Below, in pieces: positions 22,218 through 46,412 of a stretch of 64,000 bases of DNA. Under the pieces are notes generated by a model. That model was not told the origin of the DNA. It saw only the letters and a program-made list of their open reading frames with translations, and searched no databases. The position numbers and the translations under genes were made by a program. Numbering within the stretch: position 1 is the stretch's first letter; each line of letters begins with the position of its first letter. This DNA is from Dehalococcoidia bacterium (GTDB taxonomy: Bacteria > Chloroflexota > Dehalococcoidia > SHYD01): contig OZ244809.1 of the NCBI GenBank assembly GCA_965220215.1, positions 1,587,805-1,651,804 of the forward strand. The letters run 5' to 3'.

Positions 22218-22326
22218 TGTCATTCTGAGGGACTCGCCTCTAGCGAGGCCAGAAGAATCCACATAGAGTGCCCGCAGTGGATTCTTCGCTGCACCTGCCT
22301 GCGGTAGGCAGGCTCAGAATGACAAG
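22218..22326. repeat. Family-A inverted pair with nested GCCTGCC hairpin
   Basis: tgtcattctgagg...agaatccac / gtggattcttcg...cctgcctgcggtaggcaggc tcagaatgacaa. Confidence 0.9.
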
Positions 22327-24846: not shown

Positions 24847-25182
24847 TATCGTCCCGTCCCTTCAGTATCAAAGCAGTCGAGCGGATAGAGGCTTCCGGCC
24901 GAGATCAGCAGCCGCTACCAAGAGGTCGCATTGAATCGTGGCCTGCCGCCCCGTCCGCATACTGCGATGCGTAGCGGCAACAATGTCGGCCCCCGCATCC
25001 AACCCGTCTGCCGGCGGGAAAGAAGCGCCTCGTGCGCCCTATTGTGAAGAATCATTCGAGCTTCTTCAAGAGGCTAGGGGTAATGATACTAGCTGCAAGC
25101 TGGGCCGCCTACTGATGCCAAACGCTTTCCGGTGCGTCACCTGCTGTGAAAAGCGGCTCGTCTATGAAGCGCTGGGGGACGA

Positions 25183-25520
25183 CGCCCACCTTAGTCCTCC
25201 CCCTTTAATAGGGGAGGACATACCCAGGCACGCAAAGGCAACGCTGAGGCGTGAGCGCATATGCAGTGCAGGAACCCCGGCCCCTGTTCCTTCCCCCTCG
25301 TATGGGGGAAGGCTAGGATGGGGGTGCACTGATCAATAGAGCGGTTCTGGCACACCACGGTGTTTTCTTAGTGAGCTTTGGTGAAGCAGCGGATAGGCGA
25401 CGCGTTGGGCACGACCCCCACCTTAGTCCTCCCCCATTGAAGGGGGAGTAAACACGCCTTACGTTTACCCTCAGCGACGAGGCGTGAGCGCATATGCAGT
25501 GCAGGAACTACGGCCCTCAG
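25183..25520. repeat. Cluster of family-B composite repeats (about 231-bp period)
   Basis: cccaccttagtcctcccc near 25186 and 25417; gaggcgtgagcgcatatgcagtgcaggaac twice. Confidence 0.85.
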
Positions 25521-25539: not shown

Positions 25540-25569
25540 TTGACCCAGTCAGAACGTACGTCTTACTCT
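25540..25569 (+). promoter_or_regulatory. Putative promoter of the capsid operon
   Basis: TTGACC-18 nt-TACTCT; spacer contains AGAACGTACGTCTT. Confidence 0.45.
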
Positions 25570-25668
25570 CTGTCAAGTCCTTCGGCTAGCTCGCCTCAAG
25601 CGGGCGGCTGTTGCCGGAGGCGAGTCGCTGCTGGCGACAGGACAAGCCCAAAGACAAGGAGGGACGCT

Positions 25669-26124
25669 ATGGCAGAGGAAACGGGTCCGCCCGGGGCGGC
25701 GGTTTCGGAGGAGGAGGGCGGCGAGGTGGCTTCGGGAGCCTCGGCCAACAGTGCGACGGCAGACCCCGCGGCGCGGATTGAGTCGCTGGAGGCGGAGCTG
25801 GCAACTGCGCACGCTGAGCGGGAGGTGCTGCACGAGCAACTCGCCTCGGCGCAAGACGCGCTTACGGTGAGCGCAGCGCATTATCGTGAGGCCGTGCTGG
25901 CAACCGCGCCGGAGGTGCCGCCGGAGCTCGTCGCGGGCGCATCGGTGGCGGAGGTAGACCGCTCGCTGGCGGCGGCGCGGGAGACTGTAGCCGCAGTGCA
26001 GCGCCGCCTGGCCGAGCGCGTCTCGGCGGAGCGGGTGCCTGCGGGCGCGCCCCCACGCGGCGGCGCAGACCTCTCAGCGCTCAGTCCCCGGGAAAAGATA
26101 GCCCTTGCCCTGAGCGCGGGGTAG
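25669..26124 (+). CDS. Putative capsid scaffolding protein
   Basis: AAGGAGG RBS; acidic disordered N-terminus, coiled coil, Pro/Gly linker and short terminal helix (LSPREKIALAL); directly upstream of the capsid gene. Confidence 0.7.
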   Translation: MAEETGPPGAAVSEEEGGEVASGASANSATADPAARIESLEAELATAHAEREVLHEQLASAQDALTVSAAHYREAVLATAPEVPPELVAGASVAEVDRSLAAARETVAAVQRRLAERVSAERVPAGAPPRGGADLSALSPREKIALALSAG

Positions 26125-26235
26125 TGCCCCCCTCCGGTTAAGTGATTGATGCAGGGGGCACATCCCCCAACCTTGTGCCAGCCGTCCCAAGCGACTGGAC
26201 TCCCGTTACACAGCTTACACACATAAGGAGTACAC

Positions 26236-27126
26236 ATGGCGCTAACCCTTACGGAGGCCTCCAAGCTCTCCAACGATATCCTGCTCTCTGGAGTCATCGA
26301 GACGGTGGTCTATGACAGCCCCGTTCTCCAGGCGCTCCCCTTCATCGAGATTGTGGGCAACGGTCTCACCTACAACCGGGAGAACGCCGCCGCCACTGCC
26401 GCCTTCTATGAAGTGGGCGACGCCTGGTCGGAGTCCACGCCCACCTTCACCCAGATCACGGCCACGCTCAAGATCTTGGGCGGTGATGCCGACGTGGACA
26501 ACTTCCTGCGGGCCACTCGCAGCAACCTCCAGGACCTTGAGGCCGCGGTGGTCCAGCTCAAGGCGAAGGCGGTGCAGCAGAAGTTCGACGATGCCTTCAT
26601 CAACGGCGATACCACTACCGACTCGAAGGCATTCGACGGTGTCGACAAGGCGTGCGCGGCCGGCCAGTCGGTCTCTATGGGGACCAACGGCGGCACCCTC
26701 ACCCTGGATAAGCTGGACGAGGCCATCGACAAGATCAAGGGCGGCAAGCCGGAGCTGCTGCTCATGTCCAAGCGGAGCCGCCGCAAGCTCACCAGCCTCA
26801 GCCGCGCCACCGGCAGCGGCATCCTGGAGAGCGACCGCAACCAGTTCGGCCAGATGGTGCAGTACTACGACGGCATCCCCGTAGGCGTCACTGAGTGGAT
26901 CGCCGACAACAAGACGGTGGGTTCCAGCACAGACTGCTCCACCATCTACGCGCTCCAGGTGGGCGAGGGCGCGGTCACCGGGCTAACCAGCCCCGGCGGC
27001 TTGCAGGTGGAGCGGGTAGGCAGCCTGGAGTCCAAGGACGCCAGCCGGGTGCGGGTGAAGTGGTACGCGTCCGTTGCCCTCTTCAACACCCTCAAGCTGT
27101 CCAAACTCAGCGGCGTGCGGGGCTAG
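26236..27126 (+). CDS. Phage-type major capsid protein (probably HK97 fold)
   Basis: MALTLTEASKLS, SPVLQALPFIE, GGDADVDNF, FINGD...AFDG, YDGIPV, RVKWYASVAL; TAAGGAG RBS; strongly biased codons. Confidence 0.85.
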   Translation: MALTLTEASKLSNDILLSGVIETVVYDSPVLQALPFIEIVGNGLTYNRENAAATAAFYEVGDAWSESTPTFTQITATLKILGGDADVDNFLRATRSNLQDLEAAVVQLKAKAVQQKFDDAFINGDTTTDSKAFDGVDKACAAGQSVSMGTNGGTLTLDKLDEAIDKIKGGKPELLLMSKRSRRKLTSLSRATGSGILESDRNQFGQMVQYYDGIPVGVTEWIADNKTVGSSTDCSTIYALQVGEGAVTGLTSPGGLQVERVGSLESKDASRVRVKWYASVALFNTLKLSKLSGVRG

Positions 27127-27154
27127 CAGCACTAAAGTCACGCTGAGCGTCCTC

Positions 27155-27202
27155 TTGTCATTCTGAGCCTGCCTACCGCAGGCAGGCGAAGCGAAGAATC
27201 CA
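27155..27202. repeat. Family-A repeat with nested hairpin after the capsid gene
   Basis: ttgtcattctgagcctgcctaccgcaggcaggcgaagcgaagaatcc. Confidence 0.9.
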
Positions 27203-27439
27203 AGTGGGGTGGTAGGTGAGCCTGGCGTTGCCCGCCACCTACCACCCCCTGGATGCCCGAGGCGGCGGCCGAAGATAGAGGCCTAGCGGTGACGGCTCAA
27301 AAGCTAATCTAACATGCAAAGATTGCACTTTTTCCAAGAAAACATTGCGAGTTTGACCACAACGGCGATGACACTGCTGTCATATAGCCTAACGCCCACG
27401 GCCAGCGGCATCCGCGAGCGAGACGAGGGGGTATAGCCT

Positions 27440-28081
27440 ATGCCATTCACGTTGAACCAGGCGCTCGAACAGGTGCGCCGAGAGCTGGGTGACACCGATG
27501 CGGCGAACGCCCGCTGGTCGGCGGATGACCTGGAGCAGCATCTGCGCCACGCACTGGAAGCGGTCTCCCTGGTGTTGCCCCGAGAAGAGCGGGCGGAGCT
27601 GCTGACCACCGCAGGATCGCGAGAGGTGAGCATCCAGACGCTGGCGGACCGCATCGCCGTGGAAGCGGTAGAGTATCCTGCCGGTAACTATCCCGCCACC
27701 TACACGGGCTTCTCAGTCTGGGGTGATACCCTTAGCCTGCTTGTGGACGCCACACCCGGTGGCGGTGAGCGTGTGCTGGTCTACTGGCGTGCCCTGCATA
27801 CCATCGATCTTGCGGGGAGCACTCTGCCCCCTTGGGCGGAGCACCTCGTGGTGCAGGGCGCGGCGGGCTATGCGGCGCTGGAGTGGGCGAGCCTGGCTGC
27901 GAACCGCGTGAATGTGGGCGGCGAGGAGACCTGGCGGCGCTACCTGGAGTGGGGTAAGGAGCGTCTTGCGGCCTTCCACCAAGGACTAGATGGCGTGCGT
28001 CGTCGCCGGGGGCTGCAGCGCCACCAGCTCTACGTGCCCGCAACGGGCAGGCCCGGCCAGTCCACGGACGGGGGGCCTTAG
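27440..28081 (+). CDS. Putative head-to-tail adaptor protein
   Basis: Helical N-terminus (VRRELGD...RWSADDL..HL..AL), beta insert, then helical C-terminus; position after capsid gene. Confidence 0.6.
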   Translation: MPFTLNQALEQVRRELGDTDAANARWSADDLEQHLRHALEAVSLVLPREERAELLTTAGSREVSIQTLADRIAVEAVEYPAGNYPATYTGFSVWGDTLSLLVDATPGGGERVLVYWRALHTIDLAGSTLPPWAEHLVVQGAAGYAALEWASLAANRVNVGGEETWRRYLEWGKERLAAFHQGLDGVRRRRGLQRHQLYVPATGRPGQSTDGGP

Positions 28082-30064
28082 GTGCGAAGAATACCCAGGG
28101 CCCTCACCGCCGCGCAGCAGAGTGCCAGCGCAGAGCCCTACGTGCGTTTGCTGGTCTCCAATCGCATCGCGGGCGTGCCTCGGCTGCGGTGGATCCGGCT
28201 CTACACAGGACTGGAAGAGGACTACTTCCACGCCGCTACGGTGCCGGGAGACGGCTCCCTCTTGCGCGCCCGTACTACAAGCGGCGGGCAGCTCTACCTC
28301 CAGCGCGTCGCCGGCCCAGGCCAGGGCAGCGACTTCGCTACTTGGAGCAACGAAGGCAGCGTCTCGGACAGCGCCGGCGTTGCGCTGACCAGCCTCGGCA
28401 GTATGGCGCTGCTCTTCTACGTGGACGCCGACGATGCGACTATCAAAGTGCGGGAGAGTAGCGATAACGGCCAGAGCTTTGGCGGCGCAACGAGTGTGGT
28501 CACTGCGGGCGGGGCGGCAAAGTGGCTGGCTGCGGGCGTCAACCCGTCGGGCGTGGTGGCCCTCTTTTACACCGTGGGCGCAACCGTGTACGCGGTCAAG
28601 CGCACGGCTGGCGTCTGGGGACAGCCGTCTGCGTGGACCAACACCGTGGCGAGCATCACCGGCCTGGGGTGCGCCTATCGCCTGGACTGGAACCTGGCCC
28701 TCACCGGGTCGGACGCCGCCGGTAACCAGTATCTCTGGACGCTCCTCTATGGGGACGGCTACGGTCAGAGCGCAAACACCTGGTCGGACCTGAACGTGGT
28801 GGAGCCTGCCAGCAGCGGGTCGGAGGTGGGGTTCCAGGCGCCCTTTGTGGACTATATGGACGTGTATCGTGTCTTTGCCGTGCAGACGTACGCAGGCGCG
28901 GTCTCCTACAGCCGTCCTTACTGGAGCGCTATGCCTGTATTTGGCGACTACGCCGACGGCTACTGGCGGGAGCCCATCCCCTTTGACCTGACCTCCGGCT
29001 ACGGCGTCGCGCTGGCGCACGGCAACGGGTACGGATGGCTCTCCACGCCCTTTGGTGTGTGGCAGGCCGTCCTTCCCGCAGCCTATGCGGACATCTCCGA
29101 GGACGTGCTGGCGCTGTCGCTGAGAGCAAACCCGACAGAGGGAAGCCTGAGCGTCACCCTGCGGAATGACGACGGCCGCTACAATGACGCCGCATACCAG
29201 GCTGACGGCAGCGCGCTGTTGAGCCTGGGGGAAGAGATTCAGGTAAGCCCTGGCTATCGGGCCGCCGGCCGCAACCTCTCAGCCCGCGGGCCTGCGTACT
29301 GGGTGGCTGGTTGGGAGCACCGCTCGGCCGGCGGGGAAGCCACAGTAACGCTTCACGCCGTGGACGGCTGGGGACTCCTGGCCGGCTGGCGCGCCCGCAG
29401 GCAGTTCACCTGGGCAGCAGGAAGCCGGAACGTCTTTCAGATCACGGCCTTTATTCTGGCCCGCGTAGGCTTGCGGATCAGCGCGAACAGCACCAGCGAT
29501 GCGCTAGGCGACCTGCAGCCTGCGTTCACTATCCAGCCGGGAGAGTCGGGCAAGTCGGCGGTGTTGCGTCTGCTGGACATGGTGCCGGACCGCCTCTTCT
29601 TCGAGGGTGCCCTAGGCGTGCTAGTGTATCCAGAGGCTTCGGACGAGAGCGGCTACAGCTACGGCGGTAGCCATGCGCTCCTGGAGGCCAGCTATGCGAC
29701 GCAGCCGTTGGCGGTGAACCAGGCTCAGGTGCATGGCAACGGCGTCTTTGCCGAGGCCTTCGATTGGGAGCAGATCGACCTCTTGGATGCCCGCGCCCGA
29801 CACGTGCTGGATCTGAACGTAGACGATGCCGGCAAGGCCACTGACCGGGCGCTCTACGAGCTGCGCCAGCAGGTGATGGACGCTCCTGCCGGGCACATCC
29901 TGACGCCGGTGAACTGCGCCCAGCAGATCTACGACGTTATTGCTGTAACCGATGAGCGCTGCGGACTTTCCGCCGCCAAACGGCGCGTGCAGAAGCTCAC
30001 CTTAACCTACCAGCGCCACCCCCGCAGCCGCTACGACATGCGCCTAGACCTTGGCGGCGTGTAG
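28082..30064 (+). CDS. Putative virion tail nozzle/hub protein
   Basis: Trp/Gly/Ser-rich beta-propeller-like N-terminal half; C-terminal half resembling tail/baseplate hub; abuts the adaptor gene. Confidence 0.55.
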   Translation: MRRIPRALTAAQQSASAEPYVRLLVSNRIAGVPRLRWIRLYTGLEEDYFHAATVPGDGSLLRARTTSGGQLYLQRVAGPGQGSDFATWSNEGSVSDSAGVALTSLGSMALLFYVDADDATIKVRESSDNGQSFGGATSVVTAGGAAKWLAAGVNPSGVVALFYTVGATVYAVKRTAGVWGQPSAWTNTVASITGLGCAYRLDWNLALTGSDAAGNQYLWTLLYGDGYGQSANTWSDLNVVEPASSGSEVGFQAPFVDYMDVYRVFAVQTYAGAVSYSRPYWSAMPVFGDYADGYWREPIPFDLTSGYGVALAHGNGYGWLSTPFGVWQAVLPAAYADISEDVLALSLRANPTEGSLSVTLRNDDGRYNDAAYQADGSALLSLGEEIQVSPGYRAAGRNLSARGPAYWVAGWEHRSAGGEATVTLHAVDGWGLLAGWRARRQFTWAAGSRNVFQITAFILARVGLRISANSTSDALGDLQPAFTIQPGESGKSAVLRLLDMVPDRLFFEGALGVLVYPEASDESGYSYGGSHALLEASYATQPLAVNQAQVHGNGVFAEAFDWEQIDLLDARARHVLDLNVDDAGKATDRALYELRQQVMDAPAGHILTPVNCAQQIYDVIAVTDERCGLSAAKRRVQKLTLTYQRHPRSRYDMRLDLGGV

Positions 30065-30075
30065 AGGGTCGAGAC

Positions 30076-30291
30076 ATGACAGAAACCAGACGGGGCATCC
30101 TAAAGAGCTTCGATACGGACACGTTCAAGGCAACAGTGCAGGTGGCGGGCAGCCTCAGCGTGTGGCTTGACGATGTCCCCGTTAGCCGCGGCATCGCCGG
30201 CGCAGAGATGGTGGCAGGCCGCTCCGTGGCCCTCCTATTCTTCGATCCCGCCAACCCGGAGGATGCGGTAGTGGTTGCGGTGTGGAGCTAA
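30076..30291 (+). CDS. Small beta-rich virion protein (OB-fold spike-like)
   Basis: RRGILKSFD...ATVQV...DDVPV...GRSVALLF...AVVVAVW; last gene of the module. Confidence 0.5.
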   Translation: MTETRRGILKSFDTDTFKATVQVAGSLSVWLDDVPVSRGIAGAEMVAGRSVALLFFDPANPEDAVVVAVWS

Positions 30292-30294
30292 GGG

Positions 30295-30753
30295 CTAGCG
30301 CGGCGGGAACTTGGCGCGCTCGCTGCGGAGTTGCGCTAACCAGAGGGCAGCCTCCTCCGTGGTGACCCGGAGGGTTGCCCACAGCAGCGGCTCTTCCCAG
30401 TTGGAGAAGTAGGTCCCGGGGGCGACCATAGCGTAGTCGAAGTACACTTCCAGAGTGACATGCTCTCCAACTCTCCCGGCGTACTGAAAGGTAAGCCCAG
30501 GATGGGAGAACAGCAGCCGATTATGGGCAACAGCAGTGCGGGGGAGTTTCTCCACCCATTCAATAAGCTGGTCTATCTCCCACGTTAGCAGGCAAGGGCT
30601 GGTCTTCTGCCATGCCTGGTCGTGAATGCTCGCCTCAACGGAGACCAGCAACCGGTTAGCGGCCTCATCCTGCTCCCCGCGGCTAGCGCGGTTAGGGTAC
30701 TGGTAGCCCTCCAGTGACAGCTGGAAGCTATTGCCGTCCGGTCCTGTCAGCAT
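30295..30753 (-). CDS. Hypothetical protein, WapI-like immunity family
   Basis: GYQYP...ANRLLV...PCLLTWEI..L.EW pattern. Confidence 0.55.
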   Translation of the reverse strand: MLTGPDGNSFQLSLEGYQYPNRASRGEQDEAANRLLVSVEASIHDQAWQKTSPCLLTWEIDQLIEWVEKLPRTAVAHNRLLFSHPGLTFQYAGRVGEHVTLEVYFDYAMVAPGTYFSNWEEPLLWATLRVTTEEAALWLAQLRSERAKFPPR

Positions 30754-32954: not shown

Positions 32955-33290
32955 CGCCCGCGCCGCTCATGGTGAGCCTGTCGAACCACCATCTGTCTTT
33001 GCGAGAAGCTCGCAGAGCGCCTCCCATTGTCATTCTGAGCCTGCCTACCGCAGGCAGGCGCAGCGAAGAATCTGGGGCGGTGGGGTGGCCCGTCCGGTGA
33101 GGAGGGAACGTCCCAAGCGCATACTAGGGGGCAACGTCTGCCCCCGGGTTGCTACATCTGCTACCCGCCTTCACGCAACGACAGCCGCCCGCGCCGCTCA
33201 TGGTGAGCCTGTCAAACCACGTCTGTCTTTGCGAGAAGCTCCGCAGAGCGCCGAAGCAATCTGGGGCGGTGGGGTGGCACGTCCCACGCG
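32955..33290. repeat. Two related ~230-bp units with family-C repeats (CCGCTCATGGTGAGCCTGTCGAACC) and a family-A copy
   Basis: cgccgctcatggtgagcctgtc near 32961 and 33192, each followed by tctgtctttgcgagaagct. Confidence 0.85.
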
Positions 33291-33365
33291 CCTGCCAGGT
33301 TGCCGCGCCGGCTGACGCCTCCTCGCGATGCAGCTTTTAGTGTTCTAGAGTAAGGTTGCGCGCCC

Positions 33366-33872
33366 TTAGATTGGCCATAACCACCCCCATCCTAACCTTC
33401 CCCCATGGGAGAGGGAAGGAATAGAGGGCCGGGGTTCCTACACTGCATGAGCGCTCACGCCTCGACGTGGACGGTAAACGTGAGGGGAATTTCCTCCCCC
33501 TTCAATAGGGGAGGACTAAGGTGGGGGTCGTCCCCCAGCGCTTCAAAGACGAGCCGCTTTTCAACGCAGGTGACGCCCCAGCAAACGTCCGAGGCCGGTG
33601 GGATTCAGACGCAGGTTGCGCACGTTTAGATTGGGCATCGCACCCCCATCCTAACCTTCCCCCATGGGAGAGGGAAGGAATAGAGGGCCGGGGTTCCTAC
33701 ACTGCATGAGCGCTCACGCCTCAACGTGGGCGGTAAACGTGAGGGGAATTTCCTCCCCCTTCAATGGGGGAGGACTAAGGTGGGGGTCGGCCCCCGATGC
33801 TTCAACGACGAGCCGTTTTTCAACGCAGGCGATGCCCCAGCAAACGTTCGGGGCCGGTGGGATTCAGACGTT
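33366..33872. repeat. 259-bp tandem duplication of a family-B composite repeat
   Basis: atgggagagggaaggaatagagggccggggttcc at 33405 and 33664. Confidence 0.92.
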
Positions 33873-33900
33873 GGTCTACCGGTCTTTGCCTAAGGCATAA

Positions 33901-37337: not shown

Positions 37338-37448
37338 GCCCAACTCCCCGCTCATGGTGAGCCGATAGTTTATCCTGAGCCTGCCTACCGCAGGCAGGCG
37401 GAGCGAAGGAACCCATGAGCCGCCCATAACGACCACCAACCGTAACGC

Positions 37449-46230: not shown

Positions 46231-46412
46231 CTTGTCATTCTGAGCCTGCCTACCGCAGGAAGGCGGAGCGAAGAATCCACTGTGGGCGCTCGTATGGTGG
46301 ATTCTTCCGTCCTCGCCAGGGCGAGTCCTTCAGAATGACAGTGCCGCTGTGCAGGTGCCATTATGTGGCTTCTCTAGTCCTCGCGAGGGGCGAGTCCCTC
46401 AGAGCGACAGTG
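46231..46412. repeat. Family-A inverted pair with nested hairpin
   Basis: cttgtcattctgagcctgcctaccgcagg...gaagaatccac / gtggattcttc...cagaatgaca. Confidence 0.88.

Follow-up and report, generated by a model that had tools for sequence, protein, structure and literature searches.

According to the accessible part of a 2024 review, gene transfer agents (GTAs) consist of packaging and structural genes only, these genes can be distributed over several loci up to hundreds of kilobases apart, and GTAs have originated more than once (PMC11841831). The review asks whether GTAs from outside the Alphaproteobacteria are outliers or have widespread homologues, and its accessible text leaves Chloroflexota and podovirus-type GTAs unmentioned (PMC11841831). 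Here we describe five adjacent genes (g1-g5, in order) in a 64-kb stretch of DNA from a Dehalococcoidia bacterium (Chloroflexota). This stretch, referred to below as the window, comprises bases 1,587,805-1,651,804 of a single-contig 2.22-Mb genome (G000) that is 98% complete. An earlier interpretation of the window, made from its letters only, had proposed a domesticated, GTA-like, short-tailed particle system. Conservation, gene trees, selection and distance from phages all support that proposal, with 'GTA-like' being a description drawn from genomes. As read from sequence, the five genes probably, though with real room for doubt, supply the capsid and short tail of a phage-derived particle system whose genes are divided between two loci, and which would be domesticated, GTA-like, mainly inherited vertically and held under purifying selection.

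Sequence comparison gave a solid assignment of g2 as an HK97-type major capsid protein (MCP). Its product matched phrog_212, major head protein, at 1.4e-70 over residues 1-294, and PF05065 at 1.3e-10, where a score of 41.6 bits lies above the curated threshold of 24.2. This was the only PF05065 gene in the genome. The g3 protein alone fell below the cut-off for PF24175 (SU10_adaptor; 3.4e-5, 24.8 bits against 27); at the level of the family, 45 of 48 orthologues matched PF24175 at E<=0.01, the best of them at 4.8e-13. A g3 profile matched a solved chain, 7wmp_m ('Adaptor protein gp12'; 9e-4), the match being confined to residues 2-70, and an hhalign comparison of the profile with SU10 gp011 gave no support (E 0.18). 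The family-level matches suggest that g3 encodes a portal adaptor of SU10 type.

The sequence-only reading had predicted that packaging genes would be found elsewhere, and a whole-genome search for an orphan portal and large terminase (TerL) located both. They belong to a second locus on the minus strand of the same chromosome (genome 1,784,529-1,788,334), about 166 kb downstream of the module, with the order 118-aa small-terminase (TerS) candidate, TerL (455 aa), 104-aa Mor-like helix-turn-helix (HTH) protein and SPP1-type portal (441 aa). The description of the module as isolated was not entirely accurate, since the five genes are half of a two-locus system. Hidden Markov models built from orthologues matched the window's own genome once each (TerL 5e-203, portal 1e-222, HTH protein 4e-29, 118-aa protein 8e-36). 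The portal, the sole SPP1-type portal gene of the genome, matched PF05133 over residues 15-440 (3.6e-21, 76.1 bits against a cut-off of 25.5) and phrog_64 at 3e-30. TerL was 30% identical over 98% of its length to the annotated terminases of two Bacillus phages (E 2e-35), an orthologue matched phrog_2 at 1.5e-11, and ATPase- and nuclease-like motifs, whose names follow those of T4 gp17, were conserved in 33 orthologues. TerL matched no Pfam family, and Pfam Terminase_6N found nothing in the window's own genome, where the gene was picked up only by the model built from relatives. On these sequence comparisons we take the 455-aa gene to be a large terminase. The family phrog_2 proved too unspecific as a whole-genome probe for TerL, giving matches in 13 of the 14 control genomes while failing to detect the genuine TerL of a relative (G034).

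The two small genes of the second locus are tied to it by position. The HTH protein resembles Mor-type activators (1.1e-5), and its gene is kept between TerL and portal in relatives. Wherever it occurs, the 118-aa gene immediately precedes TerL, and one 3-Mb genome (G029; L324, L325, L326, L147) has four copies of the pair, about 80% identical to each other in nucleotides, of which only one adjoins the portal. Because of this constant position and co-duplication with TerL, we treat the 118-aa gene as a small-terminase candidate. Several TerL copies were also seen in G010. Genes for a methyladenine glycosylase and a DeoC aldolase border the second locus. The portal is followed immediately downstream by a 119-aa open reading frame (ORF) and a HicA-like 96-aa ORF (PF07927, 6e-4, below cut-off; genome 1,783,741-1,784,383, minus strand; L114 5742-6384), which may form a toxin-antitoxin pair. 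The HTH gene (L114 7952-8266, minus strand, compared with L135) had a synonymous divergence (dS) of 0.013 and a nonsynonymous divergence (dN) of 0 against the same-genus genome (G001, the congener), with dS of about 0.09-0.12 in its neighbours and ordinary dS at family distance; the low value could reflect chance, gene conversion or constraint on a site in the DNA, for instance a packaging signal. In another relative (G036) the HTH gene still adjoins the portal despite TerL not being found.

We examined conservation in a sample of 41 relatives and in a class-wide sample of 401 Dehalococcoidia genomes at least 90% complete, representing 207 genera. The MCP was present in 234 of the 401 genomes and 130 of the 207 genera, nearly always as a single copy; the 234 include one unpublished genome (G220), on which no other result depends. 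Conservation across the class, which the earlier interpretation had put forward as a check, is thus extensive and structured by clade, and presence tended to be all-or-none by family (21/23, 31/34 and 10/10 genomes in families f8, f18 and f23; 0/34, 0/11 and 0/10 in f25, f27 and f31). Among the 41 relatives we found MCP in 26, portal in 32 and TerL in 30. All 26 MCP carriers had a portal and 24 had TerL; nine relatives, five of them at least 97% complete, were without MCP, portal and TerL. The six relatives with a portal and without an MCP were incomplete genomes or held decayed copies. Decay was seen in G012, where MCP and portal are in pieces (L032), and in G013, where portal and TerL carry stop codons (contigs C199 and C138) and no MCP was found. 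We take these copies as decay where selection lapses. Beyond the class, 20 genomes from other Chloroflexota classes carried an MCP at 46-56% identity. In three such loci (L158, L159, L160; MCP at 50-55% identity) no homologue of g3-g5 was found within 20 kb of the MCP, and the portal adjoins the MCP in two of the three.

The arrangement of the genes among relatives bears directly on their history. We clustered all ORFs in the MCP neighbourhoods of 100 related genomes, which gave 101 loci, many on contigs cut short. Around the MCP (101 loci) only the five window genes recur (g3 in 79, g4 in 78, g5 in 61, g1 in 57). Upstream of the module and in the same orientation, 23 loci have TerL and 22 have the portal, accompanied by two small genes. 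Four relatives (G034, G023, G019, G032) have a contiguous cluster in the order TerL-HTH-portal-...-scaffold-MCP-...-adaptor-g4-g5. Elsewhere the genes are intact and split to various degrees: by 11 kb on opposite strands (G029), 32 kb (G015), 47 kb (G014), 170 kb between MCP and portal in the window's genome and 187 kb in its congener, more than 0.5 Mb in G005, and onto separate contigs in G028. The coexistence of contiguous and variously split forms, all with intact genes, indicates one ancestral cluster that has been broken repeatedly. In G034 (L022 7537-9201, 10942-12472) the contiguous cluster contains further small genes, four separating the portal from the scaffold (188, 90, 138 and 137 aa) and three separating the MCP from the adaptor (132, 286 and 82 aa). 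No family match was obtained for any of them. Genes of the 132-aa type were seen in 21 loci, and the window's genome has none.

We next consider selection, which we measured between the window's genome and its congener. The module genes had dS of 0.07-0.15, equal to that of the host flanks (0.10-0.17), and the dN/dS ratios indicated purifying selection: MCP 0.045, portal 0.063, g3 0.068, g5 0.086, TerL 0.095, g4 0.159 and g1 0.34, compared with 0.06-0.14 for the flanks. Patristic rates relative to RpoB were 0.70 for the MCP, 1.18 for the portal, 1.30 for TerL and about 1.7 for g3 and g4. Gene trees were quick LG+G4 searches on 12-18 taxa. Congruence with the species tree, another check named at the outset, was borne out in part: well-supported RpoB clades were recovered, while agreement was only partial for MCP, g3 and g4. 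In each gene tree the members of the window's family grouped together as a clade, and (G016,G032) and (G022,G023) were paired as they are in RpoB. Distances for the portal and for TerL each correlated with those of RpoB at 0.60 (none of 5000 permutations reached this value for the portal; p=4e-4 for TerL); related taxa inflate such tests, and kinship within the window's family drives much of the correlation.

No close relative emerged among complete phages. In 50,697 phage records the best identities were 39% for MCP, 30% for TerL and 22% for portal; the MCP matched 283 records, all below 40% identity, with the siphoviruses Xp15, Ab18 and Rowa as its nearest phage relatives, and tblastn searches of the same records with g3 and g4 found no match. 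In a careful MCP tree, 21 Dehalococcoidia MCPs fell on one side of a branch separating them from the four nearest phage MCPs (support 91/96), and two copies from other Chloroflexota classes formed their sister group. The IMG/VR virus catalogue has 209 relatives, of which 80 were examined; these come from short contigs (pieces with a median of 6.2 kb, longest contig 27 kb). Six mapped contigs carry the same module, and among ten flanking ORFs no family for integration, replication or lysis was seen. On this basis the entries look like the chromosomal module called viral, and not like complete phages.

The remaining genes of the module were assigned mainly from position. For g1 the most likely start is the ATG at 25669, giving 151 aa, because AAGGAGGG (25656-25663) lies 5 nt upstream of it and because orthologues align only from about residue 17-44 onward. 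In 15 of 20 relatives' loci the gene immediately precedes the MCP, and its sole family match was a weak coiled-coil hit (ATG16 at 0.038); position and size point to a scaffold role. Neither g4 nor g5 of the window matched a family in Pfam or PHROG searches. The AlphaFold2 model of g4 (predicted local distance difference test score, pLDDT, 93.2; predicted template modelling score, pTM, 0.90) shows an all-beta region at residues 18-337, with 24 strands as six groups of four, followed by a mixed alpha/beta region at residues 342-660. The modelled all-beta region is compatible with a six-bladed propeller. One Asp-box-like S-x-D-x-G motif is conserved, and a g4 profile compared with PDB sequences gave only sub-threshold BNR/sialidase matches (E 0.025-0.9). 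Five of 48 orthologues weakly matched phrog_1887 'tail protein', look-alikes in the ESM Atlas included Sipho_Gp37 tail-protein clusters at 0.92, which is a weak lead, and an hhalign comparison with SU10 gp012 gave no support (E 0.36). The g4 profile found 435 homologous proteins, and among the best 120 of these 435 every source name was 'hypothetical protein'. We observed that some homologues (P0106, P0116, P0119) are about 980 aa long with an extra PF10102 domain. Since g4 always directly follows the adaptor in relatives' loci, it is probably a tail hub or nozzle, and possibly also a receptor-binding part. The small g5 gene directly follows g4 in 15 of 20 relatives' loci, and an alignment of 37 orthologues had a mean column identity of 51%. 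Neither the window protein nor its profile, the latter compared with PDB and PHROGs, gave a match in Pfam, PHROG or PDB. Its position would fit a candidate tail tip or plug.

Coordinates of the module are collected in Table 1. The initial interpretation had described five intact genes in one orientation, ribosome-binding sites on the first two, host-like composition, and ordinary host surroundings, and each of these descriptions holds. All five genes were found on the plus strand, with AAGGAGGG before g1 and AAGGAG 6 nt 5' of the ATG of the MCP. Composition was more strongly host-like than had been claimed: GC content at third codon positions (GC3) and an index like the codon adaptation index (CAI) placed all five genes within or above the range of the genome's long ORFs, with the MCP at z=+2.2 for GC3 and z=+2.3 for the CAI-like index (background of 676 long ORFs, some spurious frames among them). 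Ten flanking genes are housekeeping genes and include those for GyrB, dCTP deaminase, a methyltransferase, gmd, chorismate mutase, TrpA, DsbA and DnaK, among others. Phage functions had also been reported absent from the 64 kb, which agrees with our searches of the whole genome for capsid, portal and recombinases, these and not an ORF-by-ORF annotation of the window being the basis of the statement. The single PF05065 capsid was accompanied by one SPP1-type portal, outside the window, and by only two tyrosine recombinases genome-wide, neither near either locus; the nearer lies 37 kb from the module, just outside the window, and the other more than 1 Mb away. No tRNA was found in the 64-kb window.

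Table 1. Features of the structural module, in window coordinates.
Feature	Position	Strand	Remark
g1, scaffold-like, 151 aa	25669..26124	+	from ATG 25669; mechanical ORF begins TTG 25540
g2, predicted HK97-type major capsid protein (MCP), 296 aa	26236..27126	+	phrog_212, PF05065
g3, putative portal adaptor of SU10 (podovirus) type, 213 aa	27440..28081	+	PF24175 at family level
g4, 660-aa two-domain protein, probable tail hub/nozzle, possibly also receptor-binding	28082..30064	+	role from position after adaptor
g5, 71-aa conserved small protein, candidate tail tip or plug	30076..30291	+	role from position only
REP-like palindromic repeat	27159..27191	+	within 313-bp g2-g3 spacer

Several features of the surroundings are specific to the window or its near relatives. 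Abutting g5 on the minus strand is a gene for a WapI-family immunity protein (PF24716, 1.7e-22; 30295-30753), which is kept beside g5 only in the same-genus genome. The adjacency g5-aroH-trpA-dsbA is common to the window's genome and another genus of the same family. A repeat resembling repetitive extragenic palindromic (REP) elements, with core CCTGCCTACCGCAGGCAGG, occurs in five copies in the window where chance would give 0. Besides the copy in the capsid-adaptor spacer (Table 1) these lie at 22289-22321, 33031-33063, 37371-37403 and 46236-46268, and the spacer copy is probably not a functional part of the system. In 21 of the 101 loci a 133-aa gene takes the place of the repeat between MCP and g3. 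Resemblances among spurious ORF translations hint at longer related repeats near 25160-25360 and 33000-33900. The 111-bp spacer between g1 and MCP (26124-26235) holds an inverted repeat, GTGCCCCCC ... GGGGGCAC. In the same-genus genome (locus L014) we saw frame breaks in gmd, trpA and g3; their occurrence in two housekeeping genes as well as the adaptor suggests assembly indel errors and not pseudogenes.

We then weighed these results against other explanations for the gene set. Helper-dependent satellites, or a conserved and still-mobile family of defective prophages, could make their own heads and connector and borrow fibres, lysis and perhaps replication from an infecting phage, in the manner of capsid-forming phage-inducible islands. 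Capsid-forming satellites carry a similar set of genes (TerS-like protein, TerL, portal, scaffold, MCP and adaptor). The resemblance in gene set speaks for a satellite, as do the failure to find fibre or lysis genes, the 209 relatives catalogued as viral contigs, the fourfold TerS-TerL pair in G029, the imperfect congruence of MCP, g3 and g4 with RpoB, and the accessory genes that, in relatives, vary in the MCP-adaptor and portal-scaffold intervals. Such an element would, however, be one that has no linked integrase (the two tyrosine recombinases lie at distances of 37 kb and more than 1 Mb), that 234 genomes mostly carry once, whose dS matches that of the flanking host genes, and that keeps the g5-aroH-trpA-dsbA adjacency between two genera. 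The viral contigs, for their part, are short (27 kb at the longest) and contain nothing beyond the module. Several lineages have the genes split over 166 kb and more with all of them intact, and a mobile island in that state could not be excised or packaged as a unit. The data argue moderately against a mobile satellite or prophage family, and we regard it as unlikely. They argue strongly against a functionless prophage relic that is decaying slowly. Such a relic would agree with structural and packaging genes only, sitting among host genes, with the clearly decayed copies in G012 and G013, and with absence from many lineages; it is contradicted by dN/dS of 0.05-0.16 at dS equal to host genes, by an MCP that evolves more slowly than RpoB, by codon usage at or above the host optimum, and by intact frames in both loci across many families despite repeated rearrangement. 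The selection data bring the relic close to refutation, and we consider it very improbable.

Conservation and purifying selection show that the system is useful and not what it is useful for. A domesticated particle could therefore serve something other than transfer, namely phage defence (as a decoy or by interference), killing or adhesion, or the storage of DNA or protein in a compartment. The two genomes with intact MCP, portal and tail genes in which TerL was not found (G030 and G036) are in favour of such a function, the modelled beta-rich, Asp-box-bearing domain of g4 could bind glycans, and the loci have a WapI immunity protein and a HicA-like toxin gene as neighbours. These neighbours are, however, not conserved beside the module in other genera. 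MCP carriers have TerL in 24 of 26 cases and portal in 26 of 26, the catalytic-type motifs of TerL kept in 33 orthologues point to DNA packaging, and we found no cargo-type gene or encapsulin family match. A non-transfer function seems to us about as improbable as a satellite, if not slightly more so.

The reading that we prefer, a domesticated GTA-like particle system, has evidence of its own to contend with. No TerL was found by single protein or by profile in G030 (95% complete; L321) and G036 (84% complete; L322), where MCP, portal and g3-g5 are intact. The system is dispensable, because whole families are without it. The correlation of MCP distances with those of RpoB is modest (0.33, p=0.047), and neither g4 (r=0.34, p=0.12) nor g3 (r about 0) reaches significance. 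Some genomes of the same family have MCPs that are 65-68% identical, compared with 81% in genomes of other families. Together with the partial RpoB congruence this makes some horizontal exchange or rate variation likely. In the MCP tree one copy from another Chloroflexota class (G587) groups with phages. No lysis gene, tail fibre or ejection protein was identified, lysis genes having been searched only at the two loci, and a podovirus-like tail made of an adaptor and two proteins would be unusually minimal. As to expression, no RNA run is among the sequencing runs listed as holding the sequence.

On the other side stand several traits of GTAs that we found here. Phage-derived structural and packaging genes sit in the chromosome with no integrase nearby, with housekeeping flanks and with no other conserved neighbour in the 101 loci. 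Vertical inheritance and purifying selection extend over a clade, with congruence partial for MCP, g3 and g4. For DNA packaged in pieces too small or too unlinked to include the whole gene set, the distance of about 166 kb between the two loci is a genomic precondition only. Host ComEC and DprA are present, but since they are also found in 10-11 of 14 control genomes they do not discriminate.

From these genes we infer how the particle might be produced, what it would package, which roles g1, g4, g5 and the small proteins would have, and how regulation, release and uptake might be arranged. Under host control, with the Mor-like HTH protein as a possible regulator, the MCP would assemble with the g1 scaffold around a portal ring, and the TerS-like protein and TerL would pump DNA into the head. 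The g3 adaptor would then seal the portal and carry g4, with its beta-rich and alpha/beta domains, and g5 as a minimal podovirus-like tail. The cargo would most likely be host DNA, as in a gene transfer agent, because there is no linked replication, integration or lysis gene and because a distance of about 166 kb between the loci keeps a particle from transporting its own genes together. A bolder form of this proposal is that the genes make up an ancient, independent GTA with a minimal podovirus-type tail, encoded by about nine possibly scattered genes, present in more than half of the species of the class and serving as a main route of gene exchange in these bacteria, whose genomes are small and which are difficult to grow, perhaps with roots deeper in Chloroflexota. 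We put this form forward tentatively and would not yet call it likely.

The consequences would be of several kinds. The capsid gene is held more tightly than RpoB over class-level divergence. If DNA is transferred, the system bears on gene exchange in Dehalococcoidia, a class that includes organohalide respirers, and in its groundwater, soil and marine lineages among others. Virus catalogues would also be affected, since 209 IMG/VR entries now count these loci as viruses. The proposal is open to direct testing, because the class has cultured members, for example Tepidiforma; that genus has cultured strains, and we found the MCP in one of its metagenome-assembled genomes. A literature search, which covered sources outside subscription journals and supplementary files, found no such system described in Chloroflexota.

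Finally, we compared the system with those already known. Encapsulins, which are HK97-fold nanocompartments (PMC8346489), resemble it in being built from an HK97-fold shell protein kept by the host. In the present case portal, terminase and adaptor co-occur with the shell, and there was neither an encapsulin family match nor a cargo gene. Satellites of the type of capsid-forming phage-inducible chromosomal islands (cf-PICI) are similar in being small islands with their own capsid, portal, terminase and connector and no tail fibres. They carry an integrase and att sites, are regulated by a helper phage and vary patchily from strain to strain, whereas the genes described here have no integrase, lie in split loci and are inherited at the level of clades. 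Kuravirus SU10 (NC_027395) has the gene order TerL-portal-(small gene)-scaffold-MCP-(small gene)-adaptor-large tail protein, which is that of the contiguous form in relatives, and the adaptor family PF24175 is common to both. SU10 continues, however, with fibres, holin, endolysin, ejection proteins and a replication module, none of which is linked here; profile comparisons with gp011 and gp012 were negative, and the nearest relatives of the MCP are siphoviruses.

Among GTAs, the candidate would be a further independent domestication alongside VSH-1 (Brachyspira), Dd1 (Desulfovibrio), VTA (Methanococcus voltae) and BaGTA (Bartonella), and the genome of VSH-1 is also divided (Stanton et al. 2009, as cited in the accessible part of PMC11841831). 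Those agents were found by experiment in single genera, whereas this system is proposed from genomes and spans a class. Its genes are unrelated to theirs as far as the comparisons went, which included no GTA gene as a query. The RcGTA type of the Alphaproteobacteria Rhodobacter and Caulobacter, as far as the accessible parts of three sources describe it, likewise has a phage-derived chromosomal set of head, packaging and tail genes without replication or integration genes, occupies more than one distant locus, and is conserved over a large clade under purifying selection with host-optimised codons (PMC11841831, PMC9765227, PMC10883770). The two have no detectable sequence relationship and belong to different phyla, and the gene set here is far smaller, about 7.5 kb in all, and known from genes alone. 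The tail of RcGTA is siphovirus-like, whereas here we find an adaptor of the SU10 podovirus type and no tail tube or tape-measure gene. By its sequence, the system appears to be a new, independent domestication of a GTA-like particle, one that combines an adaptor of SU10 type with a minimal tail and extends over a whole class. Known GTAs are few, and this candidate would add a different phylum, a different tail type and a very small gene set.

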